This document shows positions 11,882-30,583 of a stretch of DNA of 32,299 nt, piece by piece. Numbering within the stretch: position 1 is the stretch's first letter; each line of letters begins with the position of its first letter. A model generated the notes under the pieces. It ran no database searches, was not told where the DNA came from, and worked only from the letters and a program-made list of their open reading frames with translations. A program made the position numbers and the translations under genes. This DNA is from a virus (taxonomy: Duplodnaviria; Caudoviricetes), in the IMG/VR virus record IMGVR_UViG_3300025530_000352, positions 1 through 32,299 of that record; one strand, written 5' to 3'.

Positions 11882-14719
11882 ATGCGAATAGAGCGATTTC
11901 GCAGGTTCTACGAGATGTACTTGGGACCCCTACCGGAGGCCAACTCTTCAGGTGAAGTGCAGGTGCGAAGTTGCTTCCGACACGATCCGAATCCTTCAAT
12001 GTTCATCAATTTGGAGGATGGAAGGTACAACGATTTCGGAAGTGACTATAAGGGTGATGCGTACAACTTTTACATACACATGCATGATGCGTCGTTCACT
12101 GCAGCAAAGAAGGCGGTAGATGAAATCGTTGGGAGTCCTGAGGAAGGAAACATAAGGGTTCCAGTACCAATTGACGAGGATCTCGTTCTCCGATGGCACT
12201 CAAATCTAATGGCGAGCGACGATCTTCGAAAGTACATGAATGTCAACAGAGGCATCAGCAATGACATTCTCAAGAAGTTCAAGATTGGTTTCGATGGGCA
12301 GCGGTATACTATTCCAATCTATAACAAGTATGGAGTTTGCGTCAATGTCAGGAGATACTCTCCAGGGGCTTCTGGCGGAGACAAGATGATCAACTATGGC
12401 AAGGGCTATGGCAACGCAAGGCTCTTCCCGCTAGAGGCCCTTGAATCTAAGGTGGTGTTGCTTCAAGAGGGAGAGTTCGATACACTCATCCAGTGGAGCA
12501 AGGGCTTCAAGGCGATTACGAATACTTCCGGCGCAGCCACTTGGAAGCAAGAATGGACTGAACTGTTCAAGGGGAAGATAGTCTACATCTGTTACGATGC
12601 AGACAAGGCGGGTAAAGAAGGCGCAATCAAGGTTGCAAGTCAGTTGATTGGAGTTGCTGAGAGAGTCTGTATAATCGACTTGCCAGTCCCTCCAAACTCC
12701 GGAGAAGATGTTACTGACTATTACGTCAAGTACGATAAAACCGCAGAAGAATTTGCACACTTGATGTCAGAAGCGAAGCCTTTCCAGCTAGACGATGGTT
12801 CTGCTGATGCCCAGGCAAATACGGTAACCAGAACAACCCTTGTAGAAGCTCGTCACAGCAGATTCAAGCACAAGAAAGTACAATTCGATGTAATGGTGGT
12901 AGGTAAAGATACTGCACCATACAACATCCCATCCCAAATACTATTCAAGTGCTCCATGGTTGGAGTGAATGAGAAGATGTGCAGCGCGTGTCAAATCGCC
13001 CGTTGCGGAGGGGAGTTGGAGCTACAGATTCCTAAAGATCCGGACATGCTTGAGCTCATAAAGTCTTCCAAGCAGCAGCAGATGGGGTTGCTGAAGCGGA
13101 AGGCAGGCATCCCTCAGAACTGCTCTTTCTATCAAGCTGAGGACACGAAAAGTGTGAACATCGAAGAAGTCCTGTTGGCTCCAGAGATCCAGTCTTTCAG
13201 CGAGTGGTCTCCTGAGGGCGTGAAATACATCCTTCAGTCTGCTTTCATAGTAGATCATCCTTTGGATGCAAATCGGACCTATCGCGTAACTGGGATAATG
13301 ACTCCGGATCCGTGGCAACAGCACGTAACCTTCCTGCTAACAGACGGAGAGCCCTTGCAAGACACGGTATCGTCTTTTAGGATGACTCCGGAGCTGTACC
13401 AGCAGCTGAAGATCTTTCAGGTAACTGAGTCTGTGGAGAAGAAGTTCGAAGAGATTCATGAGGACTTCGAAGCAAACGTCACCCACATTGTTGGAAGAAG
13501 AGACTTACTTACCGGCATCGACTTGACCTATCACTCAGTACTGTCATTCTTCTTTCAGGAGGTGCCGATCCACAAAGGGTGGCTGGACTTCCTCTGTATA
13601 GGGGATACTCGTACTGGCAAGTCTGAGACCACGGAGAAGCTGCTACGGCACTATCAGCTGGGAGAAATCTCTGTAGCAGAGAACACCTCTTATGCAGGGC
13701 TTGTAGGTGGCCTGCAGCAGACAGGAGATCGTAGATGGTTCTTGACATGGGGCAAGCTTCCTCTGAACGATGGTCGGCTCTTCGTGATTGACGAAGTCTC
13801 CGGCATGTCAGTGGATGACATTGGGAAAATGTCCGGCATCAGATCGTCAGGTATTGCGGAATTGACTAAGATTCAGACCGAGAGAACAACTGCACGTACT
13901 CGATTGATTTGGCTCTCCAACCCTAGGAGCGGTCGTAATTTGAGTACGTACAGTTATGGCGTCTTAGCAGTACCTGAGCTTATCGGCAGAGCAGAGGACA
14001 TATCCCGATTCGACTTCGTCGTTGCAGCATCTCGGGATGAAGTTCCAATTGACCTTATCAACCAACGCAAGATTGGCGGCAAAGAAGTTCCGCACAGATT
14101 CACATCTGCCCTGTGCAGAGCACTCGCCCTGTGGGCTTGGTCTCGAAAGGCGGAAGATGTTGTATTTGAAGATTCCGCAACGGATGCCATCCTGCACTAT
14201 GCGATCAAAATGGGTCGGGAGTATTCATCTGCGATTCCATTGGTCGAAGGAGCTAACCAACGTATCAAGCTTGCCCGACTTGCTGTGGCTGCGGCTGCGA
14301 GAGTATTCAGCACAGACTCTACTGGAGAGAAAGTCATTGTAAAGAAGGAGCATGTCGACTTCGTCTATGCCTATCTCGAGCAGATCTACAGCAAGCCCTC
14401 TCTCGACTACAAGGGGTACTCTGAGCGAGAGCTCGCGGACATTCGTCTGGCGGAGAAGTACCGAGATGAGGTTACTAAGTATCTGGAAGCATTTCCGGAT
14501 ATCGCTGACTTGTTTGATCGTCAGGAGTATGTGTGGCCGAAGCATTTAGAAGAGCAGCTTGGTTGCGAGCGTGCCGCGGCGCAGGAACATATTGCATTCT
14601 TCACACGTACTAGAATGATCCAGGAGTCCAACAGCCGGGGATATAGGAAGTCTGCAGCATTCATTCAGATCTTGAGAGAGTGGAAGTTCAAGAGAAAAGT
14701 AGAGGAGGAGTTACATTGA
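11882..14719 (+). CDS. DnaG-type (TOPRIM) primase fused to MCM-family helicase
   Basis: CFRHDPNPS Zn-finger-like start; EGEFD and CYDAD TOPRIM motifs; Cys cluster; IGDTRTGKS, AGLVGG, NDGRLFVIDE, SNPRSGR, SRFD match MCM AAA+ motifs. Confidence 0.9.
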   Translation: MRIERFRRFYEMYLGPLPEANSSGEVQVRSCFRHDPNPSMFINLEDGRYNDFGSDYKGDAYNFYIHMHDASFTAAKKAVDEIVGSPEEGNIRVPVPIDEDLVLRWHSNLMASDDLRKYMNVNRGISNDILKKFKIGFDGQRYTIPIYNKYGVCVNVRRYSPGASGGDKMINYGKGYGNARLFPLEALESKVVLLQEGEFDTLIQWSKGFKAITNTSGAATWKQEWTELFKGKIVYICYDADKAGKEGAIKVASQLIGVAERVCIIDLPVPPNSGEDVTDYYVKYDKTAEEFAHLMSEAKPFQLDDGSADAQANTVTRTTLVEARHSRFKHKKVQFDVMVVGKDTAPYNIPSQILFKCSMVGVNEKMCSACQIARCGGELELQIPKDPDMLELIKSSKQQQMGLLKRKAGIPQNCSFYQAEDTKSVNIEEVLLAPEIQSFSEWSPEGVKYILQSAFIVDHPLDANRTYRVTGIMTPDPWQQHVTFLLTDGEPLQDTVSSFRMTPELYQQLKIFQVTESVEKKFEEIHEDFEANVTHIVGRRDLLTGIDLTYHSVLSFFFQEVPIHKGWLDFLCIGDTRTGKSETTEKLLRHYQLGEISVAENTSYAGLVGGLQQTGDRRWFLTWGKLPLNDGRLFVIDEVSGMSVDDIGKMSGIRSSGIAELTKIQTERTTARTRLIWLSNPRSGRNLSTYSYGVLAVPELIGRAEDISRFDFVVAASRDEVPIDLINQRKIGGKEVPHRFTSALCRALALWAWSRKAEDVVFEDSATDAILHYAIKMGREYSSAIPLVEGANQRIKLARLAVAAAARVFSTDSTGEKVIVKKEHVDFVYAYLEQIYSKPSLDYKGYSERELADIRLAEKYRDEVTKYLEAFPDIADLFDRQEYVWPKHLEEQLGCERAAAQEHIAFFTRTRMIQESNSRGYRKSAAFIQILREWKFKRKVEEELH

Positions 14720-15189
14720 TAGCAACACTGTGCAAATCGTTCACCTTTGATGCCGCCCATCAGCTGGTAGGTCACAAGGGCAAGTGCCAAAACCTTCACG
14801 GACATACTTACAAGCTGGAGGTGTTCATCACCGGAGAGGTTAATCGAGACTACGGGTCTTCAGACGAAGGCTTCGTAGTAGATTTCTCCGAAGTCAAGGA
14901 GATTGTCAAGCGGGAGATTGTCGACCCTATGGACCATGCGTTTCTGGTCTGTGGCAATGAGCCCGCACTCGACAAAGTGCTTACCAAGAAGTACTATCTG
15001 GGATTCCGATCGACCTGTGAGAACATGGCCGGATACATCTTGTACAAGCTCTCGCGTGTATGGCCGCCGCACTTGCCGCCGGTGACTAAGATCCGCTTGT
15101 GGGAGACTCCAACTGGATATGCGGAAGTGAGTCTCGAGGGTCACGACCTTGATCAGATTGTCAGAGAGATGGTAGGAGGTGCCGAATGA
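14716..15189 (+). CDS. queD: 6-carboxytetrahydropterin synthase
   Basis: FDAAH, CQNLHGHTY, VDF, DHAFL, TCEN, WETP; TTG start after GAGGAGG. Confidence 0.93.
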   Translation: MIATLCKSFTFDAAHQLVGHKGKCQNLHGHTYKLEVFITGEVNRDYGSSDEGFVVDFSEVKEIVKREIVDPMDHAFLVCGNEPALDKVLTKKYYLGFRSTCENMAGYILYKLSRVWPPHLPPVTKIRLWETPTGYAEVSLEGHDLDQIVREMVGGAE

Positions 15190-15935
15190 GTGCGAAGATT
15201 CCAGTCCTAGAAATCTTTGGACCTACAATTCAGGGAGAAGGCGCTGTCATTGGAAAGAAGACGGTGTTCGTTAGAACTGCGGGATGTGACTATTCCTGCG
15301 CGTGGTGTGATTCGAAGTTTACTTGGGATGGCTCTGCGAAGCATCAAATTCGAATGTTGTCCCCGGAGGAGGTCTGTCAAGAGATCTTCTCTCTTGCAGG
15401 AGATAGCTTCAATCATGTGACTATCTCTGGCGGCAATCCTGCCCTGATAGGTCCCCAGATGCGAGAGCTTCTTATTAGGTTGCATAATCGTGGAGTGAAG
15501 GTAGGTCTGGAGACTCAGGGAAGCCGTTGGCAAGATTGGTTCCTGCTGGTGGATGACCTCACGATCAGTCCGAAGCCGCCTAGCAGTGGCATGCGAACTG
15601 ACTGGGGCATCTTGCGATACATTGTGGAGAAGCTTGCCGGCTACTGCGACATGGCTGAAGAGGCCTACAACTTCAATCTCAAGGTAGTAGTGTTCGACCG
15701 AGATGACTATGAGTTCGCGAAACAAGTGCATCGGGAATTTCCGGAGGTTCCTATGTTCTTGTCCGCAGGCAATTCTGATGTAACTCCAAATGCCTCCAAA
15801 GCGGAGCTTCGGGATTCCATTCTGACAAAGCTTGATTGGCTTGCGTCGAAGGTCATGAACGATCCAGCAATGAATGAAGTTAGAGTATTGCCGCAGCTGC
15901 ATGTGCTTCTGTGGGGTAATCAGAGAGGAGTATGA
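15186..15935 (+). CDS. queE: 7-carboxy-7-deazaguanine synthase (radical SAM)
   Basis: [34 protein letters not shown]. Confidence 0.96.
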
Positions 15936-15939
15936 GGAT

Positions 15940-16560
15940 ATGAAATTGACGCAGATTCAATATAACGCGATAACTTCCGCAATAGGGAGCACGCCACAGC
16001 TTGAAGAGCTCGAGAGCGTTCTTAAGGGGATTCAATCGTTGATCCAGCTCTGTGGAGACGATCCTGACAGAGATGGCTTACAAGACACGCCCTACAGAGT
16101 GTTGAAAGCTTTCCTAGAGTACACTTCGGGGCTTAGGGGTGATCCGAAGGAGCATCTGCAGAAGACTTTTGACGTGCAACATCAGGAGCTGGTGCTCGTG
16201 AAGGACATCGAATTCTACTCGATGTGCGAGCACCACTTTGCACCATTCTTCGGGGTGGCCCATGTTGGATACATTCCGGAAGCGCGCATCACTGGCTTGT
16301 CCAAGATCGCACGAATGGTGGAAGGATATGCCCGCAGGTTCCAAGTGCAGGAGAGGCTGACTGGTCAGATTGCGCAAGCAATGGAAGAAGTGCTTCAGCC
16401 GAAGGGTGTAATGGTGGTCGTAGAAGCAAAGCACATGTGCATGTGCTCTCGGGGAATTCAGAAGAGTGGGGCCTCTACTACTACCTCCTCTGTTCGAGGA
16501 GTGTTTCTCAGAGAAGCGGATGCTCGTGCGGAGTTTCTCTCACTGATTTCGAAGGGGTGA
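15940..16560 (+). CDS. folE: GTP cyclohydrolase I
   Basis: [32 protein letters not shown]. Confidence 0.96.
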
Positions 16561-16566
16561 TCTTCT

Positions 16567-16929
16567 GTGGATAAAGCGTTGATGGCAATGCTCTCTAGTA
16601 GAGCACGCTGGATCAATGAAGCCACTGACACAGTGATCGAAGAGCTGCTGTCCGGCGTGCTTGGGTATCGAGACTTTCAGAGACTGTTGGGGCTGCCTGC
16701 AAGATTGCACAGGCAGTTCCTGCACTCTGCAGGAGTTGACCTTTACATTGTCCCCTATGAGACTTCGCGACTGATCGTGCTCAGGACGATCGATAACGAA
16801 TTCTTGAGAGCACGTGTGGTCAAGTATGACCCAATATTCGATCGCGTGGAAGTCGAGGGACTTTCAGAAAAGAGGTTCAGGGAATTGATGGAGCATCTGA
16901 AGAGACACTTTTCATCTTCGCTGCACTGA
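16567..16929 (+). CDS. hypothetical protein inside the deazaguanine cluster
   Basis: GAAGGGG SD-like, GTG; fills gap between folE and next promoter. Confidence 0.6.
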   Translation: MDKALMAMLSSRARWINEATDTVIEELLSGVLGYRDFQRLLGLPARLHRQFLHSAGVDLYIVPYETSRLIVLRTIDNEFLRARVVKYDPIFDRVEVEGLSEKRFRELMEHLKRHFSSSLH

Positions 16930-16937
16930 AATTGCCC

Positions 16938-16966
16938 TTGAAATTTTCCTGAAAATATCGTATAAT
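16938..16966 (+). promoter_or_regulatory. sigmaA-type promoter (copy 6)
   Basis: TTGAAA-N17-TATAAT. Confidence 0.8.
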
Positions 16967-16977
16967 TAAATTAGGAG

Positions 16978-17325
16978 GTGAGTTCAGTGATCGTTAAACT
17001 TGTGAGAAGCCCAGAAGAAAGAGAAGCGCTTGAGAAGGTATTTAATGCATATGTCGAAGAGGCTCTTGCACGTGCGCAGGCATTGCGCGAAGAACGCGGC
17101 AAGGGCTATAACTCGACAGTCTCAATCGTGGACTACTTCCCTCACGGAGAGCAAGACCTTACATACGAGCTGTTCAAGAAGCTGGTGCGTACAGAGAGTG
17201 TCATTGCTGCGGAGAAGGAAGGGCTTGAAATCGATGGCAGTGTAGAGGACAGCATTCTTGATGCAATCAACTACAGCGCATTTCTCTATGCGTACTACAA
17301 GATGCGAAAGGAGGGCTTCAATTGA
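16978..17325 (+). CDS. nucleotide-modification-associated (Nmad1/DUF1599-like, MazG-type all-alpha) protein
   Basis: RGKGYN...KKLVR...SVEDSILDAINYSAF; start may be GTG 16987. Confidence 0.6.
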   Translation: MSSVIVKLVRSPEEREALEKVFNAYVEEALARAQALREERGKGYNSTVSIVDYFPHGEQDLTYELFKKLVRTESVIAAEKEGLEIDGSVEDSILDAINYSAFLYAYYKMRKEGFN

Positions 17326-18083
17326 AAGTTGCAGTAATTGCGCCAACCAAGCTTCTGGATAAGTTTGCTGCGAGATCGAATTATCACTTGGTACTTGCTC
17401 ACCAGTACATGCAGGATGCGGCGTACCGTAACTTCTACAAGCGAATGGTGGCCCGCGGAGATTTCGTTATTCTGGATAACAGTGCTTACGAGCTCAAGCG
17501 TTCGGTGGACGTGTCTGTGCTGAGAGAATGTGCAGAGGACTTGCATCCAACCGCAATGTTTCTGCCTGATGCCAGATTTGACACTAGCGAAACCTTGAGA
17601 CTGGTCGCGGAAGCCATTCCGCAGCTGCAGGGGTTGAACGTGAAACTGCTTGCAGTTCCTCAAGGGAGGAATCTTAGCGAAGTTCTTGCATGCTACAATA
17701 TTCTGAAGGCACATCCTGACATTCATGGATTTGGCTTGTACGAAGAAATTGGTGAAGTCTGTGGCTTCAAGGATCGTGTGGAGTTCCTGAGATTCTTGGA
17801 CTCCGAAGGTCTCTTGGACTACACCAAGTACTATCACCTGTTGGGAATGGAAGAAGATGTCACCAAGGTCCGGGAGCTCTGCAAGTTCCCTTGGGTGAGT
17901 GGCATCGATAGTGCCAAGCCTGTGGTGTATGGGCTCCACGACATCAAGTTCAGCGAGGTAGAAGTACTTCCAGAATATCCTCATCGGCCAGAAGGGTACT
18001 TCGAGATTGAGAAAACTCCTTACGAATCTGCGGTGATTCACAATATCGATACTCTCAAAAAATGGGCCCAGAATTACGCGTAA
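17322..18083 (+). CDS. divergent TGT/DpdA-like guanine transglycosylase
   Basis: TGT-barrel motifs in order: ILDNSAYE, FLPD, AVPQG, YHLLG, GIDS; located in the que cluster. Confidence 0.7.
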   Translation: MKVAVIAPTKLLDKFAARSNYHLVLAHQYMQDAAYRNFYKRMVARGDFVILDNSAYELKRSVDVSVLRECAEDLHPTAMFLPDARFDTSETLRLVAEAIPQLQGLNVKLLAVPQGRNLSEVLACYNILKAHPDIHGFGLYEEIGEVCGFKDRVEFLRFLDSEGLLDYTKYYHLLGMEEDVTKVRELCKFPWVSGIDSAKPVVYGLHDIKFSEVEVLPEYPHRPEGYFEIEKTPYESAVIHNIDTLKKWAQNYA

Positions 18084-18168
18084 GAAATATATTGCCGAAA
18101 AATTTTCTCCGGGGATTTATAAGGAAAATTTCCGGAGATTTTTCGGAGAATGAAAGGAGTTAATAAAT

Positions 18169-19611
18169 ATGTGCAGTATATCAGGAGCAATGTTCCCTTT
18201 GCTCATGGATCCGCTACAGAGTGCCCGCTACGAAGATATGCTCCGCGACGTCATCTGCGTAGCAGAGGAGCGCGGAAGAGATAGCTGGGGGTGTGCTTTG
18301 ATATCGTTGGTTCCGTCCCAAACGAAGATCATTCGCAAGATCGGTCGTCCGAGCCACACCCTTCGGGAAGTCGAATTCTATGTTCCTATGATGTCAATGG
18401 CCATCAACAATAATCGCGCGGAACCTACTACGGAATATGTTTCGAGCAAGCTTCCGAAAGACATACAGCCGTTCACCTGCGGGGGGTGGATCGTTGCACA
18501 CAATGGAACGATTGCCAACGACAAGGAACTGATCGAGAAGTATGGTCTGAAGGTTGAAACTTCCATTGACAGTGCTGTCATCCCTGCACTCCTAGCTCAC
18601 TTTTTCAGCGACCCTGCAGAAATTAACTTCCACGAGATCGTCGAGGTACTCTCCCGAGAGCTCGTAGGATCCTACGCTCTCGCGATTGCTCATACCAATT
18701 GTCCTAACGACCTCATCCTTATGGTGAACTACAAGCCTCTGTATGTGGCATGCAATTCCGAGAAGAACTTCTTGCTTTTCTCGAGTCTCGATAAGTACTT
18801 GGAGGCGCCCGGCTTGGATCTTCAATTTGCTAGCGACTTGCGAGTGAAGCCGCTCAAGCCGTACTCGGCACTGCACGTAACTCGTCACACCTCCGGAAGG
18901 CTCTGCTTTGATGAAATCAGCTTGCCAAGGAAGCGTCCGGATTCTCAGAGAGCGTTGGTAGTTTGCTCCGGAGGACTTGATTCCACAGTAGTTGCAGCAG
19001 ATGCACTTCGTCGCGGGTACGAAGTAACTCTGCTCCACTTCCAATACAGTGCACGTGCAGAGGTGAAAGAAGTTGAAGCTGTCAGAAACATTGCCGATCG
19101 ACTTGGGTGTGACTATCTCATCGTGGGAACAGATATCTTCAAAACTGTCATTGGAGGATCTCGTCTCACTAACACACGCGATGAGATCAGTGAAGGAGTT
19201 GCTGGTGCGGAATTTGCTCATGAGTGGGTCCCAGCCAGAAACCTCATTATGCTTGCAGTGGCAACTGGAATCGCTGAATCCAAGGGTTATGGAGTTATCA
19301 TGCTCGGTAATAACCTCGAAGAATCCGGTGCCTACCCCGACAATGAGATGGAATTCATCCGAAAGTTTTCCGAAGTTCTTCCCTACGCCACACAAGTGGA
19401 CAAGCACGTACGTGTGGAAATGCCTGTAGGACATCTCATGAAGCATGAGATTGTCAAGAAGGGCGTTGAGCTTGGCGCTCCACTGGACCTGACTTGGTCG
19501 TGCTACGAGGCAGGAGATCTGCATTGTGGGCAGTGCGGTCCGTGCTTTATGCGCAAGACGGCCTTCAAGATCAACAATATTCCTGAAGTGATCCAGTTCT
19601 TGAATGAGTGA
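18169..19611 (+). CDS. gat-queC: Gat-QueC fusion (class II glutamine amidotransferase + 7-cyano-7-deazaguanine synthase)
   Basis: N-terminal Cys2, HNGTIAN, IDS; SGGLDST, VPARN, YPDN, TWSCY, CGQCGPC. Confidence 0.92.
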   Translation: MCSISGAMFPLLMDPLQSARYEDMLRDVICVAEERGRDSWGCALISLVPSQTKIIRKIGRPSHTLREVEFYVPMMSMAINNNRAEPTTEYVSSKLPKDIQPFTCGGWIVAHNGTIANDKELIEKYGLKVETSIDSAVIPALLAHFFSDPAEINFHEIVEVLSRELVGSYALAIAHTNCPNDLILMVNYKPLYVACNSEKNFLLFSSLDKYLEAPGLDLQFASDLRVKPLKPYSALHVTRHTSGRLCFDEISLPRKRPDSQRALVVCSGGLDSTVVAADALRRGYEVTLLHFQYSARAEVKEVEAVRNIADRLGCDYLIVGTDIFKTVIGGSRLTNTRDEISEGVAGAEFAHEWVPARNLIMLAVATGIAESKGYGVIMLGNNLEESGAYPDNEMEFIRKFSEVLPYATQVDKHVRVEMPVGHLMKHEIVKKGVELGAPLDLTWSCYEAGDLHCGQCGPCFMRKTAFKINNIPEVIQFLNE

Positions 19612-22345: not shown

Positions 22346-22382
22346 TAGAATATACTGTTTTCTTTGAAAGGAGGTGAAGACC

Positions 22383-22745
22383 ATGAGATTTTGGCTAGAG
22401 GTACCTTGCCGCGAGCTTTCAGACCCTAGACTCCTAGACGAGCATCGTAGCGTACATGCGTATTTCGGTGGAATGATGAGGGCCCCTAAGAAATGGGCGA
22501 AACATCCTCTGATCGGTCCAATGGATCCATCTGTAATGCACCTAAGGCATGCCGAGCAAGTCGCTGAAATGCTTTCAAGAGGTTTCAAACATTCCACTCC
22601 TCTTGACCTTAGCGATGTAAACCACATCTCAACATGGCGAAACGCTAACGGCCTAGGAACTATTGGAATGTATCTAAATGCAGAAGGCAGCCCGATCCTA
22701 CATGAGAAGATGCGAGAGCTGCAACTAGAATACCTTGTACGTTAA
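22383..22745 (+). CDS. pyrimidine-dimer DNA glycosylase / endonuclease V-like protein
   Basis: MRFW..P..LSDPRLLDEHRSVH, HP, RHAEQVAEMLSRGFKH. Confidence 0.7.
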   Translation: MRFWLEVPCRELSDPRLLDEHRSVHAYFGGMMRAPKKWAKHPLIGPMDPSVMHLRHAEQVAEMLSRGFKHSTPLDLSDVNHISTWRNANGLGTIGMYLNAEGSPILHEKMRELQLEYLVR

Positions 22746-23583: not shown

Positions 23584-24051
23584 ATGAAAGGTTCAAAGGT
23601 AATTTCACAAGGAAAGCGGGTACGCTTGATCAGTTGGACCTACAAAGATATGGTGCACTACGGGATTGAGGCCCTTGCAGATGGTCAGATGCTGCAAGTC
23701 TTCTCTCCAACCAAAGAGATGAAAGGCTGGGCTCTTCGGCAGGGGGCTTTGCAGCGGTTCAAAGAGATGGACTCTGTAGAAGCAGGCAGGCCTCTTTCTG
23801 ACTTCTACTCCGTGGTGCAGGACATTGACTCGATCACGTCGCAGCATTTTCTTGTGTGGTGGAACAAATCCAGAGGAAGATACTCCTTCGGAAAGGTAAC
23901 TTCGAAGAGTGAGTATCTTGTGTTCTATGTGAGTCCTGACAACGATCCTGGATTCTTCAACAAGTCGAGTCTCCAAGAGAAAATAGATCTGGGGGTAGTA
24001 TGGGTTGTGGACTCTTCACAGATTCCAAGTGAAGTAGTCTGGAGGGAGTAG
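23584..24051 (+). CDS. hypothetical protein
   Basis: GAGGAGGG SD, 155-aa ORF. Confidence 0.7.
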   Translation: MKGSKVISQGKRVRLISWTYKDMVHYGIEALADGQMLQVFSPTKEMKGWALRQGALQRFKEMDSVEAGRPLSDFYSVVQDIDSITSQHFLVWWNKSRGRYSFGKVTSKSEYLVFYVSPDNDPGFFNKSSLQEKIDLGVVWVVDSSQIPSEVVWRE

Positions 24052-24052
24052 T

Positions 24053-24400
24053 GTGAGTAAATTTTCAGAAGGCGATTGGGTAATAGTACGCCGAAATGCA
24101 TTGGACATGCCCCCATTAGTAGGGTACTTAAAGGATATCTTAGTCGCAAGAGGTTCCTACAGGAGGCGTTCTCTTAGGGTGCGCATAGTGCGTCGGCTGG
24201 ATGGGAAGCCTATTTCTTGGGCGGGCGCTGAAATCTTGGTTAGGGACTTGGATATAACTCCATACCCGCCTGAGGAAGGGACCTTGCAAGATCTTATAGA
24301 CTTCGCACTCGACGCTAGAGATCGCGAATGGTTTCTAGAGCTTTCCGAACAGTTAAAGCAGCAGAGAGAAACCACCGCGCCAACGGTGACTGAAGAATGA
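24053..24400 (+). CDS. IDEAL-domain protein
   Basis: C-terminal LIDFALDARDREWFLELSEQLK. Confidence 0.8.
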   Translation: MSKFSEGDWVIVRRNALDMPPLVGYLKDILVARGSYRRRSLRVRIVRRLDGKPISWAGAEILVRDLDITPYPPEEGTLQDLIDFALDARDREWFLELSEQLKQQRETTAPTVTEE

Positions 24401-24446
24401 CATATTATTAGCCCTATCTTACCACATAGGGCAAGGGAGGTAAAGA

Positions 24447-24713
24447 ATGACCAAGAAAGCAACCGGCATTGTGCGCAAGGTAGACGAGCTTGATAGGATA
24501 GTCCTGCCGAAAGAGCTGCGTCGTGTATACGGCATCAACCCTAACGACTCGGTCGAGATCTTTGTCACAGGCGAGGAGATCATCCTGCGCAAGTATGTAC
24601 AGCCTACGGGATGTACATTTTGCGGTACGGTCGCGGATCACTATGCAGATATGGGAGACCACAGGATCTGCCCAGGTTGTGCGGAGTTGATCATGGAGAG
24701 GCTGCAGTCATGA
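24447..24713 (+). CDS. abrB: AbrB-family transition-state regulator with C-terminal Zn ribbon
   Basis: KATGIVRKVDELDRIVLPKELRR...IILRKY; CTFC...CPGC. Confidence 0.9.
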   Translation: MTKKATGIVRKVDELDRIVLPKELRRVYGINPNDSVEIFVTGEEIILRKYVQPTGCTFCGTVADHYADMGDHRICPGCAELIMERLQS

Positions 24714-25059
24714 TCAACGGTACAATCTGATTTTGAGAGTAATTATCGCGAAATATTCAAATTTCCCGGGAAAAGCTGCCTTATTTTCCCGGGAATATTT
24801 TTGGGGCTTTAGAATTTATCCGCTGAAATCTTGGCCCGATAATTGCAGGAGACCTCACAGAGGGAGGCATAAAAATTCAGATGAATTAACATTGATTCCC
24901 GCAAATATAACGTTGAAATCCTCCTTTATAAAAGAGGGAAATATTTCTTCAACAGAATTATATTGAAATTCGGTCCCCTATCGGAAATCAACAAAATACT
25001 TGCGGGAAGCTCAAACTATTGCTCTCTATGAATACAACAAAAGATTTATATAGTGCTCA

Positions 25060-25088
25060 TTGATTTACCAGCAGGGGTATCATATAAT
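25060..25088 (+). promoter_or_regulatory. sigmaA-type promoter (copy 8)
   Basis: TTGATT-N17-TATAAT. Confidence 0.8.
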
Positions 25089-25135
25089 TTAACTAACAGG
25101 CAAAACATTTCGCTTTCTAAAAGGAGGTGATAAAA

Positions 25136-25804
25136 ATGCAGAAGCGCTTCGAAGATCTCACTCCTGAAGAGCAGTACATACAGAGTAAAGAGTCACCCGA
25201 ACTTTATCAGGAGTTCTTCCGAATTCATCAAAGGCTTGCGTGGTTCATAGTGCACGAAGTAATTCGCCCGGAGGCTGCTAAGCTTCTAGATCGCGGGGCG
25301 TCTATGGATGACTACTTGCAAATTGCGATGCTAGGGATGTTGAAAGCCTATCAGACTTTCAATCCTGAAAGATCGAAATGGGCTACTTGGGCTTCAGTCT
25401 GCATTCGAAACGAGCTTTACATGACTCTTCGCCGTCGAATGAAGTACGTCAAGCGAAACATCATCTTCGAATCCTTCGACGACATAGTGTTTGACCGCTC
25501 TGGCGGAAGAGGAGACGAAGCAATTACCTTGGAGCAGACAATAGGAGAAGAGGACCTTCGAATGAAACTGCTCGAGAACGTGGAATTCTTCTGGGCTGTA
25601 GTAGAAAGGCTCAAACGTCATCTCAACGCCACCGAACTCAAAGTATTCGAGAAGGTGCTCGAATGCCGTCAAGGAGTAACGCAGGTCACTCTCGCTCGAG
25701 ATCTTGGGATCAGCCAATCATACATCAGCCGGGTACTTAGGCGCATCTACTTCCAGGCAGAAGAAATTCGCAAGCAGCTCCTAGCAGACAAACTTACCTC
25801 TTGA
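25136..25804 (+). CDS. sigma-70 family factor, sporulation sigmaE/sigmaK-like
   Basis: LKAYQTFNPERSKWATWASVCIRNELYMTLRR (region 2); TQ..LARDLGISQSYISR (region 4). Confidence 0.88.
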   Translation: MQKRFEDLTPEEQYIQSKESPELYQEFFRIHQRLAWFIVHEVIRPEAAKLLDRGASMDDYLQIAMLGMLKAYQTFNPERSKWATWASVCIRNELYMTLRRRMKYVKRNIIFESFDDIVFDRSGGRGDEAITLEQTIGEEDLRMKLLENVEFFWAVVERLKRHLNATELKVFEKVLECRQGVTQVTLARDLGISQSYISRVLRRIYFQAEEIRKQLLADKLTS

Positions 25805-25829
25805 TTTCTTCAGGATTTTCACGTATAAT
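25801..25829 (+). promoter_or_regulatory. sigmaA-type promoter (copy 9)
   Basis: TTGATT-N17-TATAAT overlapping the sigma stop codon. Confidence 0.8.
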
Positions 25830-25849
25830 TAATATAGGAGGTGATACTA

Positions 25850-26308
25850 ATGAAAAGCGAAAGCGAGATCGTAGCAACCTTTACGGAAGCAGGAATTGCA
25901 GCATTCTCACGTGCAATCCTGAATGCAGTCAAGGTCGGAATCAAGATTGCCCAAGAGGTGCAAGTTGTCCCGAAGGAGGACATCGACAGTTCCGAAGTAG
26001 ATCGGATCGTGCACGCATATTACAAGAAGCGTTCTGAGTCCGCGGAAGCAGAAGCTTCCCCCGACGCTGCTACGGCAGAGGCTCCAAAGCTTGACACCGT
26101 AGTTCTTCAGGGACTCTTGGAAGACTTGCTTAAGAACAATCCAATGAAAGTTTCCGAAGTGTTGAAGGCCTTGCACGCAGAGGGATTTGACTGTACATAT
26201 CAACAGCTCTACTATTCGCTGGAGAAGTTGGTAAGTGCAGGAACAGTCCAGAAGCTTTCTGACAAACGATATGTAAACACATCCGACTCTTTGAAAGAAG
26301 CTCTTTAG
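25850..26308 (+). CDS. protein with C-terminal winged-helix domain
   Basis: TAGGAGG SD; PMKVSEVLKAL...QLYYSLEKLVSAGTVQKLSDKRY. Confidence 0.7.
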   Translation: MKSESEIVATFTEAGIAAFSRAILNAVKVGIKIAQEVQVVPKEDIDSSEVDRIVHAYYKKRSESAEAEASPDAATAEAPKLDTVVLQGLLEDLLKNNPMKVSEVLKALHAEGFDCTYQQLYYSLEKLVSAGTVQKLSDKRYVNTSDSLKEAL

Positions 26309-26318
26309 AGAAGGGAGG

Positions 26319-26552
26319 TTGAGTAAATTGAATCCTGAAACATTCCATCTATTTGAGCAAGTCCTTGCAAATACACGCAAGTACTTCGTATGCGAGTACT
26401 ATGCAGGCACCCGTGAAATGATCTTTAGATACGTGTGTAAGCAACTTGGGGATGTTCCTCCAGCAATGGTGTCCGCAGCGCTGAGAGTACTCCGCGACAG
26501 CAATGCAATCATATACGACAAGAAGGTTTGGTGGTTCTTGGCCGACAGATAA
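26319..26552 (+). CDS. hypothetical protein, possible winged helix
   Basis: AAGGGAGG SD; TREMIFRYV...VSAALRVLRDSNAIIYDKKVWW. Confidence 0.55.
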   Translation: MSKLNPETFHLFEQVLANTRKYFVCEYYAGTREMIFRYVCKQLGDVPPAMVSAALRVLRDSNAIIYDKKVWWFLADR

Positions 26553-26586
26553 TCCGACCCTAGAGTGCATCTATGGAGAACGGACC

Positions 26587-26615
26587 TAGGAGACCTTCGG
26601 GTCTCCTACCTTCTT
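26587..26615 (+). terminator. hairpin / probable terminator
   Basis: TAGGAGACC-TTCG-GGTCTCCTA; weak T tail. Confidence 0.65.
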
Positions 26616-26634
26616 GAAAGGAGGTGATTATTCT

Positions 26635-26856
26635 TTGGGAAGCAGTCGCCCAAAGTTTGTGATGGACATTTCTGTAGAGAAAGTAGACATGAGTTCTTGG
26701 ACCGTGTATCGGAGAAGACAGACCTGCAAGTGCAAGAGAGTTTGCAATGACGCAGTTCGGTTCATTGGTATCGAAGATCGGATAGTGGTGTGCCGGAACA
26801 GAGCTGCAGAGCTTCTAGGAGAACTGTCTAGCATACTTAAGGACGGTGAAAGCTGA
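26635..26856 (+). CDS. hypothetical Cys-containing protein
   Basis: GAAAGGAGG SD, TTG; CKCKRVC...VVC. Confidence 0.6.
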   Translation: MGSSRPKFVMDISVEKVDMSSWTVYRRRQTCKCKRVCNDAVRFIGIEDRIVVCRNRAAELLGELSSILKDGES

Positions 26857-27008
26857 TGACGCGCCCACGTAGCTACCGAAGAGTACTCTGCGAGAAGTGT
26901 CGCAAGAAGTACTCGTACTATCACTTTCCGAAGCACTCATGCAAGCCCCGGACGGAGAGAAAGAGGCCAGCTGATCTCAATAGATCTGGAGGTAAGAAAA
27001 ATGGATAG
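26856..27008 (+). CDS. 50-aa basic protein with C2HC zinc-finger-like motif (not in ORF track)
   Basis: TGATG coupling; CEKCRKKYSYYHFPKHSC. Confidence 0.55.
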   Translation: MTRPRSYRRVLCEKCRKKYSYYHFPKHSCKPRTERKRPADLNRSGGKKNG

Positions 27009-27321
27009 GCAATCAACCCTCTACTACCAGAAAGTAATTCTCCCGCGTTGCATCAAGATCGGACAGTACATAGTTTCCCAGCGGGCAACTCTCAGAGCAA
27101 CAGCTCTCGCATTCGGAGTATCGAAGTCAACTGTGCATCAAGCAATCGGTGTACTCAAGCATATTGAACCGTCCCTACATCAACAAGCACTTGCGGTGAT
27201 TCAGTACAACAAGTCGGTAAGACATCTTCGCGGTGGGGAAGGCACGCGGAAGAGGTATGAGCAGATTCGTCAAGCGCGGCAATTGGAGCAAATACTAAAA
27301 TCTCCGCGAATATACGGGTAA
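27001..27321 (+). CDS. spoIIID: SpoIIID-like sporulation transcription regulator
   Basis: RCIKIGQYIV...TLRATALAFGVSKSTVH...YNKSVRHLRGGEGTRKRY. Confidence 0.92.
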   Translation: MDRQSTLYYQKVILPRCIKIGQYIVSQRATLRATALAFGVSKSTVHQAIGVLKHIEPSLHQQALAVIQYNKSVRHLRGGEGTRKRYEQIRQARQLEQILKSPRIYG

Positions 27322-27333
27322 ATTCCCCGTAAT

Positions 27334-27369
27334 AAAAATCAGGGAGTCCCTTTAGGACTCCCTTTGTTC
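27334..27369. terminator. bidirectional terminator between convergent spoIIID and SASP genes
   Basis: AAAAATC-AGGGAGTCC-CTTTA-GGACTCCCT-TTGTT. Confidence 0.75.
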
Positions 27370-27377
27370 GGGCCCAA

Positions 27378-27719
27378 TTATTGTAATTGGTTCTCTTGTC
27401 CGTTAAACGGCATCGGAGGGCTAGATTCTGCAAAGTGAGGTGCTGTGCCTTCGCCTTCTTCCTGTAGCAGTACATTGTGTCCTTGAGCTGCCATCTTCTC
27501 TGCAAACTGCAACATTCGCTTCACCATCTCTCCACCAACTGCTCCGCAGTAGTAGGAAGGAACCATTCTCCAATCGTACTTGCCCTTGTTGTTCTTGGGA
27601 ACCTTCACTCCGATGGAGTTAGCTACTTGATACTTGATCGCATCCAGAGCATCTCTCGCTTCGGGAATCTCAATCTGGTTCTGAGTACCCGTCGTAGTGC
27701 TGTTGATTTTGTCGTCCAT
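27378..27719 (-). CDS. alpha/beta-type small acid-soluble spore protein with C-terminal extension
   Basis: PEARDALDAIKYQVANSIGV...SYYCGAVGGEMVKRMLQFAE; AGGAGG SD before ATG 27719. Confidence 0.9.
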   Translation of the reverse strand: MDDKINSTTTGTQNQIEIPEARDALDAIKYQVANSIGVKVPKNNKGKYDWRMVPSYYCGAVGGEMVKRMLQFAEKMAAQGHNVLLQEEGEGTAPHFAESSPPMPFNGQENQLQ

Positions 27720-27808
27720 AAAATCTCCTCCTGAGATCATAGTGGCTACCTTTGGATGATCTTTCGATCATCACTAGTATTATTATATATGATCCCAGGA
27801 GGAAATAT

Positions 27809-28123
27809 TTACGCATCTTCAGATTTCTTTTGTGCGCTGGAAGATTCTATGGAACCCTCCACATCTTTTGTTCTTGAGTTCGCGTTCAACATTCCTAGCT
27901 GTGCAAACGTCGGCATGATAGGATGAACAACGTCAAGGAGTGCGAAAAGTATGTCCGACTTGGAAGTCTTGAGAGTAAACTGCATCTGCCCACCAAGACG
28001 AACATATTCCTCAATGAGGTCCTTCTTTGTACGCGAGACATTCTCCCTGTAGTAGCGATCCCTCTGACGCAGTATCTCCTGAATCTTTCGATTCAGCTCC
28101 ATCCTCTTCTTTGAAACTCCCAT
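27809..28123 (-). CDS. hypothetical basic protein
   Basis: AGGAGG SD before ATG 28123; own promoter. Confidence 0.7.
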   Translation of the reverse strand: MGVSKKRMELNRKIQEILRQRDRYYRENVSRTKKDLIEEYVRLGGQMQFTLKTSKSDILFALLDVVHPIMPTFAQLGMLNANSRTKDVEGSIESSSAQKKSEDA

Positions 28124-28162
28124 GATACAACCTCCTGCCAATTGCTTGTTGCGGATGATTTT

Positions 28163-28191
28163 ATTATATGATGCACCTAGAGGGATTTCAA
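28163..28191 (-). promoter_or_regulatory. sigmaA-type promoter (copy 10)
   Basis: Minus strand TTGAAA-N17-TATAAT. Confidence 0.8.
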
Positions 28192-28379
28192 TTGATGGAT
28201 TTGTATGCAGCATACCTCAATCGCAATGCCCTTACTGCTACAGCGAGTCTCTCCTCCGCAGCGATCAGTGCATATGTCGCTGCATCAACGTACTCTGGAT
28301 TTGCGTTTTCGAAGTTGTGAACTGCTTGATTGTAGGCTGCCAGTGCTTGTCGATACTCCTGCATTACTCTATCTTCCAC
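28188..28379 (-). CDS. DUF2508/YaaL-family protein
   Basis: A.HNFENANPEYVDAATYALIAAEERL; GAGGTG SD before GTG 28379. Confidence 0.75.
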   Translation of the reverse strand: MEDRVMQEYRQALAAYNQAVHNFENANPEYVDAATYALIAAEERLAVAVRALRLRYAAYKSIN

Positions 28380-28389
28380 AGAGCCCACC

Positions 28390-28503
28390 TCACTTTCCTT
28401 TTTGAAGATAAATGTGTGCGAGGATTGCTCGAACGTCAACCTTGATCTTCGGTGGTGTCTCTTGCTGTGTCGAATGCTGCGTCTTCTTCGACAAGGATTT
28501 CAC
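28390..28503 (-). CDS. 37-aa hypothetical protein (not in ORF track)
   Basis: GGAGGGGG SD, GTGA overlap with upstream stop, fills the gap exactly. Confidence 0.45.
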   Translation of the reverse strand: MKSLSKKTQHSTQQETPPKIKVDVRAILAHIYLQKGK

Positions 28504-28742
28504 CCCCCTCCCACTGCAAGAATTACACTTCCGATGGCGTTAGCTAGCTGTACCGGAATCGAGATTCCTTGTCGGGAAGGCATCCATTCCGGAGACTGCT
28601 TCGTACGATACCACTCACGAATGGTAACGTACTCCTTTCCACGCAACTGCGCTCTCCGAATCTCGTATCGAGAGTTCTCGGACTTCTCGATGATCGTTGC
28701 ATCAGATTCCCAACCCCAAAAGCCGTGTCCCTGAATGTTCAT
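28500..28742 (-). CDS. PC4/YdbC-like ssDNA-binding protein
   Basis: GKEYVTIREWY....EWMPSRQGISIP. Confidence 0.8.
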   Translation of the reverse strand: MNIQGHGFWGWESDATIIEKSENSRYEIRRAQLRGKEYVTIREWYRTKQSPEWMPSRQGISIPVQLANAIGSVILAVGGG

Positions 28743-28932
28743 ACGTGAATCTCCTCGCATTCGTTTTTGCAAAGCATGTTGGACACGTGAACTTGTCCGT
28801 TGCTGCACTGTATGTTGGATCGTGCGTCCTGACGAATTCTTCTGCCGTCATGTGCAGAAGGTATGCCTGAATGTCGATTGACGATATGTGTTGCGGAGCT
28901 CTACTACAGCCTCTGCACTCCACCTGTTTCAC
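28702..28932 (-). CDS. hypothetical Zn-binding protein
   Basis: CRGC...DPTY...FTCPTC; GGAGG SD; exact start uncertain. Confidence 0.65.
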   Translation of the reverse strand: MKQVECRGCSRAPQHISSIDIQAYLLHMTAEEFVRTHDPTYSAATDKFTCPTCFAKTNARRFTYEHSGTRLLGLGI

Positions 28933-28935
28933 CTC

Positions 28936-29115
28936 CTAGAGCGGCTTGATTATGGTGTGGTTGTTTTGCTTCGTGAGGCACAATTTGCATCGAACTTTTC
29001 CATTCGGCAGTTTTTCCCAATGATGTCCATGAGTTCGACAGAGTTTCCGTAACCTGCGAGTTCCTAGCGCATACCCCAGCGCTGCAATGACGAGTGTGTA
29101 CAGCAAGAAGCCCAT
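28936..29115 (-). CDS. 59-aa protein, N-terminal TM helix plus C..GH.W...C..C motif (DUF1660-like; not in ORF track)
   Basis: MGFLLYTLVIAALGYALG...CRTHGHHW...CKLC; GAGGTGA SD. Confidence 0.65.
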   Translation of the reverse strand: MGFLLYTLVIAALGYALGTRRLRKLCRTHGHHWEKLPNGKVRCKLCLTKQNNHTIIKPL

Positions 29116-29252
29116 TTCCGATCACCTCTTTTCGCTGGAACTAGGTTGCCTCTGCAGGGAGGACACCTGCCATCTGGAGCATCTCTTCCCCGAGTGAATT
29201 TGCATCCTGGAAGTGAGAGCCGCGGAAATCCGCCGCAAACGAGTCCTCCCAA
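29064..29252 (-). CDS. possible small Cys-rich protein
   Basis: GGGAGG SD before TTG; C...C...CPPCRGNL; alternative frames exist. Confidence 0.35.
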   Translation of the reverse strand: MGGLVCGGFPRLSLPGCKFTRGRDAPDGRCPPCRGNLVPAKRGDRKWASCCTHSSLQRWGMR

Positions 29253-29347
29253 TACATCCACCTCCCTCAGGTTCTCTGTTCAACACTCAATGGTTTTGAG
29301 TGCTGAATCGAGAACCCGAATGCAAGTAGCATCCGAGTTCTGCAAGG

Positions 29348-29756
29348 TTACTCGTCTTCCTCTTCTTCTATCGGAAGGACCTGCACACTGCCGCAGCGAA
29401 GACACTCCCTGTAGAAGCAATAGTCGAGCGCTGCTCCAACTACAAACGCGGTGTTGTTTCAACTTCTCGTGTCACACTTTCTGCTTGCCAGAGCTCTCTG
29501 TAGGCGGTAGAACCACAGTTGGCACATCTGTGAGGCATTGGGGTGCTCATCACCGGTAGCGATTGCTTTGTCACGGCGGTTGCAAGCACATCAATCAGTT
29601 TGGGCAACCCCACCTCGGCAGGCTCTCCTTTTAGATAGGTTTTCACCTCGGTGAGTTCGAGACCGTCACTATCTTTATTCCGGTAGTGGGTTCTCGAAGA
29701 ACCCACTTACCCTCTCTGTACCGGAACCCCAGCTTTTCAAGATCCCACAACATCAT
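29348..29756 (-). pseudogene. probable frameshifted Zn-ribbon gene
   Basis: CANCGST and CLRCGS halves lie in adjacent frames; strong SD at 29756 opens only a 37-aa ORF. Confidence 0.45.
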
Positions 29757-29769
29757 CTTTCTTCGCCTC

Positions 29770-30261
29770 CTACGGGAGATATGGTCCGAACACCTTCAAG
29801 CGTACTTCGCCTTGCGAGTTATCAAGTTCCAAGGCCTTGAAGAGAAATCTCTCTCCCCGGGACATCTTCATCACTTCGTCAACTCGTTTTGCATTCGGAA
29901 CAACCCAGGAGTCTATCTTCTCGCTCACAGCGTTGTAGATTTCCTGAGAGTTCTCTGTGAACGGAGTAAAGTGCTCCACTATCACGTTAACCTTCCCGCC
30001 TAGTACCCTTCCGGCAACCTGTTGCAGCTCCTGCATTAACTCCAGTACCCTAATGCTGTCGTCGGTGTCCGGATGATCCAACATTCCCACTTCATAGCAT
30101 CCGCATGCGTTGCACCTCTGCTCAGCGGTCTTTACATTAAACTCCGACAGATCGTAGGAGGGATCCAGCGATCCCTCATGGTTCACCCTTACCACTCCAG
30201 TACCCGCAAGGTACTCTGTTACGCTTGTGCTTCCGCATTTAATGCAAGTGAGCTTCTTCAT
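29770..30261 (-). CDS. hypothetical protein with N-terminal Zn ribbon
   Basis: TAAGGAGG SD; CIKCGS...CNACG. Confidence 0.75.
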   Translation of the reverse strand: MKKLTCIKCGSTSVTEYLAGTGVVRVNHEGSLDPSYDLSEFNVKTAEQRCNACGCYEVGMLDHPDTDDSIRVLELMQELQQVAGRVLGGKVNVIVEHFTPFTENSQEIYNAVSEKIDSWVVPNAKRVDEVMKMSRGERFLFKALELDNSQGEVRLKVFGPYLP

Positions 30262-30322
30262 TTGTTCTTCCTCCTTAGAATTTTAATTGGTAGGCGCATT
30301 TCCGAAAGCGCAGCCAACAGCC

Positions 30323-30583
30323 TTATCTTAGCTTAGTTACATCATAGGCTTCTACAGGCTTGTAGTAGCTAGGCAATGGCAACAGCATCAACTCGCTGTG
30401 GCCAACGCCTCTCGCATAGGTAACTGCCTTGATCATGTCCTGCAGAACAGTCGCTGCATCGCTGCAGTCTGTCAGCGGATTAATTTCACCGCCGCTGCTC
30501 TTGACCTGCTCAAGCGCATACAGCAACACATCCTCCAAGTAGTCACTTCTCAACGTTACTTTAACTGTTTGCATACTGCTCAC
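30323..30583 (-). CDS. hypothetical protein
   Basis: GAGGAG SD; start may be ATG 30574. Confidence 0.65.
   Translation of the reverse strand: MSSMQTVKVTLRSDYLEDVLLYALEQVKSSGGEINPLTDCSDAATVLQDMIKAVTYARGVGHSELMLLPLPSYYKPVEAYDVTKLR

Follow-up and report, generated by a model that had tools for sequence, protein, structure and literature searches.

A dense, probable patchwork of sporulation-gene homologues on a phage that is likely lytic and likely infects a spore-former

Phage-borne homologues of a sporulation sigma factor, of SpoIIID, of AbrB and of the small acid-soluble spore proteins (SASPs) are each known already, as are the pairings of sigma with SpoIIID and of sigma with SASP. Here, a locus in which all four occur together, within 3.9 kb (24447..28379), was examined in IMG/VR virus record IMGVR_UViG_3300025530_000352, a linear sequence of 32,299 bases that was analysed whole (hereafter the window) and has a CheckV completeness of 41%. 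The closest described arrangements are those of Clostridium phages phi3626 (open reading frame (ORF) 32 for sigma, ORF42 for SpoIIID) and vB_CpeS-CP51, in which sigma and SpoIIID are annotated 3-4 kb apart in the early region. Unlike the window, both are small (33-39 kb), have an integrase by annotation and give no SASP or AbrB match, and their sigmas group near SigG, apart from the window sigma, in a 25-row tree. The other pairing is found in the lytic Bacillus phage SPO1, whose alpha/beta-type SASP, gp34.25, is transcribed in the direction opposite to its neighbours and whose sporulation-like sigma, gp2.21, is non-essential (PMC9429907). The two SPO1 genes lie ~90 kb apart, however, with no SpoIIID or AbrB match, and its SASP has 80 residues and is ~29% identical to that of the window. 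The same paper describes sporulation-family sigmas, likely non-essential, in further phages of spore-formers (SP10 g120, Eldridge g168/g169 and Goe3 g157); those tested are compared there with SigF/SigG, whereas the window sigma resembles SigE/K in its regions 2.4 and 4.2 and lacks close relatives. Prophage SPbeta likewise carries an alpha/beta-type SASP gene, sspC, which is under sigmaG control and raises the ultraviolet resistance of spores (PMC8270828), whereas the window SASP has no sigmaG promoter above chance and ends in an acidic tail of 35 residues.

The first-pass annotation of the window had held that single phage sporulation genes were known, which is true but, given these pairs, understated. 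Phages of spore-formers are enriched, according to Table 1 of PMC10294663, in abrB, sigE, sigK, spoIIID, spoIIIE and an RNase H-like gene; SASP is absent from that table. A search of the openly accessible literature, the PMC10294663 supplements (in which co-occurrence might be tabulated) aside, found no description of all four genes on one phage. What is new is the presence of all four on one phage, together with a distinct clade of long, acidic-tailed SASPs.

Five sporulation homologues within 4 kb had originally been claimed for the locus (Table 1). The span holds, and AbrB, sigma, SpoIIID and SASP all exceed their Pfam cut-offs (PF04014, 46.3 against 24.7 bits; Sigma70_r2 PF04542, 47.2 against 24; PF12116, 87.3 against 27; PF00269, 61.4 against 22), but DUF2508, the fifth, has no Pfam match. 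The reading frames of the cluster are all intact, with strong ribosome-binding sites, and two of its genes lie on the opposite strand, indicating more than one operon. The DNA was found in four sequencing runs, all of them bioreactor metagenomes. In X1, possibly the source run, positions 24626-30352 form a single contig of 5,727 bases with zero differences at a depth of 104.8, against 102.5 for the contig carrying the replication genes; since the sigma, spoIIID, SASP and DUF2508-like genes thus share one contig at replication-gene depth, they are the phage's own. Runs X2 and X3 yielded shorter pieces only, one of which spans 27640-28290, and RNA run X4 yielded a few short pieces at a depth of ~4 that may derive from DNA and provide no evidence of expression. 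Both GC and third-position GC of the sigma, SpoIIID and SASP genes are in line with those of the core genes.

Table 1. Features of the sporulation-homologue cluster and its immediate surroundings in the window
Feature	Position	Strand	Matches and remarks
IDEAL-domain gene	24053..24400	+	PF08858, 32 bits over 22; 3' end within the shared stretch (shared pieces from 24369)
AbrB-family regulator with C-terminal Zn-finger-like tail (CxxC..CxxC)	24447..24713	+	TIGR01439, PF04014
AT-rich non-coding stretch with nested inverted repeats (arms 24896-24921, 24983-25008)	24714..25059	.	36% GC
SigmaA-type promoter-like site, TTGATT-17-TATAAT, ahead of the sigma gene	25060..25088	+	
Divergent sigmaE/K-like sigma, 222 residues, without pro-peptide	25136..25804	+	PF04542
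SigmaA-type promoter-like site heading the winged-helix-to-spoIIID run	25801..25829	+	
152-residue protein, probable C-terminal winged helix	25850..26308	+	Sub-threshold TrmB/PadR matches; ESM Atlas clusters unnamed
77-residue ORF, without family	26319..26552	+	
Cys-containing ORF of ~75-80 residues, without family	26614..26856	+	
50-residue ORF, CxxC..HxC (Zn-finger-like), overlapping the spoIIID start	26856..27008	+	Sub-threshold matches only
SpoIIID homologue, 106 residues	27001..27321	+	PF12116, phrog_11726, PDB 2L0K (E 1e-17)
Two hairpins at the convergence of the + and - runs, the second terminator-like	27301..27363	.	
Alpha/beta-type SASP, 113 residues, long acidic tail	27378..27719	-	PF00269
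Site upstream of SASP, TATAAT lacking the TTGA -35 element present at the other sites	27782..27812	-	
104-residue ORF, without family	27809..28123	-	Behind a sigmaA-type site at 28191-28163
Distant DUF2508-like protein, 63 residues	28188..28379	-	Below family threshold

The sigma factor has SigE and SigK as its top NCBIfam matches (E ~2e-18, 66-67 bits), at about a quarter or less of the respective equivalog cut-offs (339/348.6 for SigE and 252/298.65 for SigK). Alignment with eight host SigE/SigK frames shows that the protein begins at region 1.2 and has no pro-peptide, as had first been proposed, so that it could act without processing. Of the promoter-reading regions, 4.2 carries a string, GISQSYISR, that is identical in host SigE, and 2.4 is mostly kept (CIRNELYM against CIENEILM in SigE). 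Among 1.84 billion representative sequences, leaving the protein itself aside, the best relative reaches 43% identity and the two that follow 35%. In a quick tree (the 25 rows referred to above) the window sigma pairs with its 43% orthologue (support 99) on a long, phage-type branch. One seeming precedent, HSE3 gp017 (L001:9301-9909), annotated as a sigma-E precursor, does not align as a sigma factor and is probably misannotated.

SpoIIID retains the FGVSKSTVH helix and the C-terminal basic stretch RHLRGGE, and scores below the equivalog cut-off of TIGR02844 (79.7 against 111.5). The gene sits among small, presumably DNA-binding ORFs, for which winged-helix and Zn-finger identities had been claimed; a winged helix is probable and the CxxC..HxC pattern visible, but neither ORF reaches a family cut-off. 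Matches to the SpoIIID consensus were not enriched in the window, with 12 against 9-24 in shuffled sequence.

Of the whole locus, the SASP stands out most, belonging to a clade of eight sequences far removed from the host SASPs sampled. The window protein keeps GxVGGEMxKR in alignment with SspC, and a low-confidence model (predicted local distance difference test score 60) places helices at residues 19-35 and 55-78; a fold search with this model returned nothing at E 0.001. At the position of the germination-protease site, whose consensus is E-I/F-A-x-E, it has QVANS, with both glutamates gone, and each of its seven clade relatives keeps at least one of them. Those relatives are metagenomic proteins of 110-129 residues, 52-70% identical to it, and with them it forms a clade (100/99, stem 2.0) against 27 other SASP rows, the bootstrap having not settled. 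All eight members keep an invariant core and carry a net charge of -3 to -8. Length alone is not new, long SASPs being present in some hosts of the tree set. Of 301 genomes sampled from the phylum, 243 give a SASP match, the top-scoring among those listed being 35-54% identical; matches being so widespread at this level, the host cannot be told from the SASP.

The AbrB domain also exceeds the TIGR01439 cut-off (37.8 against 28.3 bits), and the product matches AbrB sequences in PDB at E 1e-13. Positions 24369-24596 are near-identical to X1 contigs at 360-440x, against ~103x for the phage itself, and the remaining three runs also contain deeper contigs that nearly match the abrB stretch, some of which continue into different flanks. 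Because of this near-identity to more abundant contigs with other flanks, abrB is read as a shared, swapped cassette. Residue 16 of the protein is Asp where the family has Gly; the four runs read G at 24493, from contigs that may belong to other elements, and no weight is given to this difference. The adjoining non-coding stretch (24714-25059) folds as DNA with a z of -3.0, has no Rfam match and is possibly a replication origin or regulatory element. One of its repeat arms is a copy of a 26-nucleotide motif that occurs three times (556-581, 24896-24921 and 27301-27326), with an inverted copy at 24983-25008, and that has no occurrence in shuffles or in relatives; two of the copies are hairpins with the loop TAAATT directly after gene ends.

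The product of 28188-28379 is, on profile scores, a distant DUF2508 look-alike and not a family member. The absence of a match to PF10704 (cut-off 22.5) extends to E 10, whereas a profile built from 30 host DUF2508 members gave 16.3 bits (E 1.5e-5 among 47 ORFs), the best of 2000 shuffles reaching 13.1; an ESM Atlas match (0.86) is a lead only. A tie of DUF2508 to sporulation is presumed. The literature search found no paper naming DUF2508, and yaaL was absent from the passages of sporulation papers that it covered.

The set and order of genes do not recur in the relatives, which are fragments. The closest, G001 (35.7 kb, 54% complete), is syntenic with the window from SNF2 to the ORF at 23584, at 27-63% identity, and itself extends further, as far as its terminase; across the equivalent region SpoIIID, sigma, SASP and AbrB are all unmatched, and unrelated cargo (a 3D-domain protein and a MazF-like ORF) stands at the position of the cluster. 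On G333 (10 kb, ligase 56% identical) an orthologous sigma (43%) adjoins a homologue of YyaC, the product of a forespore gene (PMC12700454). This homologue is above the cut-off of PF06866 and below that of TIGR02841 (76.8 against 84.9 bits), and G333 also carries another sigma and an AbrB-like ORF below threshold, with no SpoIIID or SASP within its 10 kb. G003 has SpoIIID and none of the other three. Searches for sigma region 2 and for tyrosine integrases found neither in three relatives that are complete but more distant. The lineage therefore repeatedly collects sporulation homologues, in sets that differ. Two arrangements outside the window are of note: a related phage fragment (L189:3449-8593) in which YyaC, a weak AbrB-like ORF and two sigmaE/K-like sigmas lie within ~5 kb, a second and different sporulation patchwork, and a temperate phage (L190:9633-10477) in which SpoIIID overlaps the sigma gene in an early run past repressor and cro-like genes. 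Within the window itself, a low-depth X2 contig swaps the 403 bases at 29363-29767 for 13 others, a sign of variable cargo there.

Wider searches gave no close relative bearing the block. Single-protein IMG/VR scans with sigma and with SpoIIID found none, a primase scan gave one 13-kb fragment and a scan with the ORF at 23584 gave G001 only; a metagenome scan returned matches of 26-34% only, nearly all in the N-terminal uracil-glycosylase part, and genome scans returned nothing or host SASPs. Against 50,697 phage records the window proteins matched 17 records with SpoIIID, 28 with SASP, 32 with sigma and 68 with AbrB (60 of these listed), and the SpoIIID and SASP lists had no accession in common. 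Family profiles were then applied to whole virus records, with SPO1 as the positive control of the SASP search. SASP and AbrB were each found in 0 of 19 SpoIIID-bearing records and a sigma match in 13, one of them under the cut-off; among eight SASP-bearing records none had SpoIIID and two had AbrB. The counts are rough, many of the 19 being near-identical CP51-like phages and several being fragments. In this survey SpoIIID and SASP do not co-occur elsewhere. The cluster is real and denser than the cases compared, yet behaves as a patchwork.

In Bacillus subtilis, sigmaE and SpoIIID form a mother-cell feed-forward loop. Both partners are present in the window, but the sigma has no pro-peptide, no sigmaE-type promoter was found ahead of spoIIID, and co-expression would proceed from sigmaA-type sites. 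The pattern TTG(ATT/AAA)-17-TATAAT occurs at 11 sites, all in gene orientation, where 0.02 are expected (100 shuffles). The TTGA-17-TATAAT motif is found also in relatives G001, G002, G003 and G004, and since none of these gives a sigma match the repeated sites are taken to be early promoters of host sigmaA type. The possibility that the phage sigma reads the repeated CATATAAT sites was rejected, the motif being present in relatives without a sigma match and absent beside the orthologous sigma of L189. As the spoIIID start overlaps the preceding ORF and no separate site was found, the nearest clear one being of sigmaA type at 25801, the host-like order of sigma and then SpoIIID is not visible, and the feed-forward wiring first suggested is not borne out. 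As to the forespore stage suggested for SASP, its upstream site has two mismatches to the sigmaG consensus, a score matched or bettered by 31% of 300 shuffles (17% for sigmaE and 42% for sigmaK), and no sigmaG, E, K or F promoter stands above shuffles, 17-73% of which reach the score. Of 21 comparison SASP genes (20 bacterial, one on a viral contig), three have a perfect sigmaG match and five have one mismatch.

Elsewhere in the window, the left margin carries the end of a probable structural gene, followed by FtsK, ligase, a RuvC-like nuclease and an SNF2 helicase, then a PD-(D/E)XK nuclease, a primase-helicase and QueD/QueE/FolE/Gat-QueC, and thereafter a uracil-glycosylase-fused polymerase A, a pyrimidine-dimer glycosylase, RNase H and small ORFs. 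The Que set (14680-19611), with synteny kept in many IMG/VR relatives, is presumably a 7-deazaguanine DNA-modification cluster; a 253-residue protein encoded between these genes (17322-18083) matches unnamed PHROGs only and no PDB sequence. Genes flanking the sporulation cluster encode the pyrimidine-dimer glycosylase (22374-22745), the IDEAL-domain protein and a PC4-domain protein (28500-28808). The + and - gene runs meet at ~27,350, where the sign of the GC skew flips and which the cluster straddles. Short direct repeats with T and C runs lie by the contig end (31850-32299), possibly a genome end or packaging region.

The phage is likely lytic and likely infects a spore-forming bacterium. 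The reading preferred here, with a confidence evenly poised between right and wrong, is that the locus is a patchwork of host-derived sporulation homologues, in a variable early region, that would disturb host sporulation early, with SASP as a separate, DNA-coating gene. A patchwork is preferred to a fixed circuit because each of the four kinds is known from phages and the closest relative lacks them. From the observed homologies, missing pro-peptide, promoter-like sites, layout and patchy occurrence, the following course may be inferred. Shortly after entry, host vegetative RNA polymerase would transcribe from the 25060 and 25801 sites; the unprocessed sigma could then bind core polymerase at once and, with SpoIIID, trigger or compete with mother-cell transcription out of turn. 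Fewer or later spores would result overall, and time would be gained to complete lysis. SASP might protect or compact DNA, which would be useful if the phage genome lands in a forespore, and AbrB would be a recent, independent passenger. In PMC9429907, some phage sigmas of this kind lowered spore yield. Several points weigh against the disturbance of host sporulation. The same paper describes little effect of divergent phage sigmas on host sporulation genes. The window sigma shares only 30-39% of residues with host SigE/SigK where they match, and in the tree it branches outside the host E/K/G clade (support 97), a placement that long branches make unsure. SpoIIID has lost the KD of HKDL, reading HQAI instead. 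In temperate phages, SpoIIID and sigma genes are often located in ordinary early or replication regions, as would suit proteins that act in transcription of the phage itself. Finally, 59% of the genome lies outside the record, and the close relatives found are fragments only.

The last of the biological points leads to the foremost alternative, possible but rather doubtful, namely that the genes are repurposed for the phage itself: sigma would read phage promoters of the middle or late class, phage genes would be regulated by SpoIIID, AbrB and the winged-helix proteins, SASP would be a phage nucleoid protein, and host sporulation would be untouched. The long phage-type branch shared by sigma and its orthologue is consistent with this, as are the company of small DNA-binding ORFs that SpoIIID keeps, the early-region position of the sigma and SpoIIID pair in temperate clostridial phages, and the distance of the SASP clade from host SASPs. 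AbrB, moreover, is common on phages, Listeria phages included, and the SASP upstream site, unlike the sigmaA-type set, is a candidate target of the phage sigma. However, relatives including the three complete ones lack a sigma match, indicating that the late genes of the lineage need none; the conserved C-purine ahead of TATAAT is found also in G001, which has no sigma in its 35.7 kb; and the sporulation-like sigma of SP10 is dispensable (PMC9429907).

It is unlikely that swapped cassettes have recently accumulated, mostly neutrally, where recombination is frequent, with a sporulation theme that reflects no more than the host gene pool. The near-identity of the abrB stretch to more abundant elements in all four runs, the unrelated cargo of G001 and the placement of genes on both strands behind separate promoters would all fit such an origin, but the intact frames with strong ribosome-binding sites, the invariant core of the SASP clade and the recurrence of sporulation homologues in the lineage (YyaC, a second sigma, SpoIIID) do not, and the core-like base composition of sigma, SpoIIID and SASP points to long residence.

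A more speculative proposal, and a decidedly improbable one, is a two-phase dormancy switch, in which an always-active sigmaE-like factor and SpoIIID would hijack the mother-cell programme early and the SASP, of a new, long and acidic-tailed class that lacks the germination-protease site, would coat the trapped phage genome. Were this so, the SASP, read by a phage or forespore sigma, would outlast host SASPs at germination and the phage would wake before its host. The coordinated circuit of the first-pass annotation, in which AbrB, a sigmaE-SpoIIID feed-forward pair, a forespore SASP and the FtsK/SpoIIIE-type motor would drive the phage genome into spores and protect it there, is very unlikely: four homologues of three stages do lie within 4 kb in a combination that no other virus record tested shows, the site upstream of SASP is distinct and SPbeta sspC provides a sigmaG-controlled, protective precedent, but relatives do not conserve the block, abrB is a swapped cassette, no sigmaE-type promoter of its own was found for spoIIID, the sigmaG match of SASP is at chance level, and FtsK lies 22 kb off among early genes, behind a lineage promoter and downstream of a gene with no family match.

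A new system is not established by this finding. It bears on the question, raised by PMC9429907 and PMC10294663, whether phages use sporulation homologues to prevent dormancy, to take advantage of it or for their own ends, because a single genome here encodes a SigE-like sigma that needs no processing, a SpoIIID and a SASP of unusual type.

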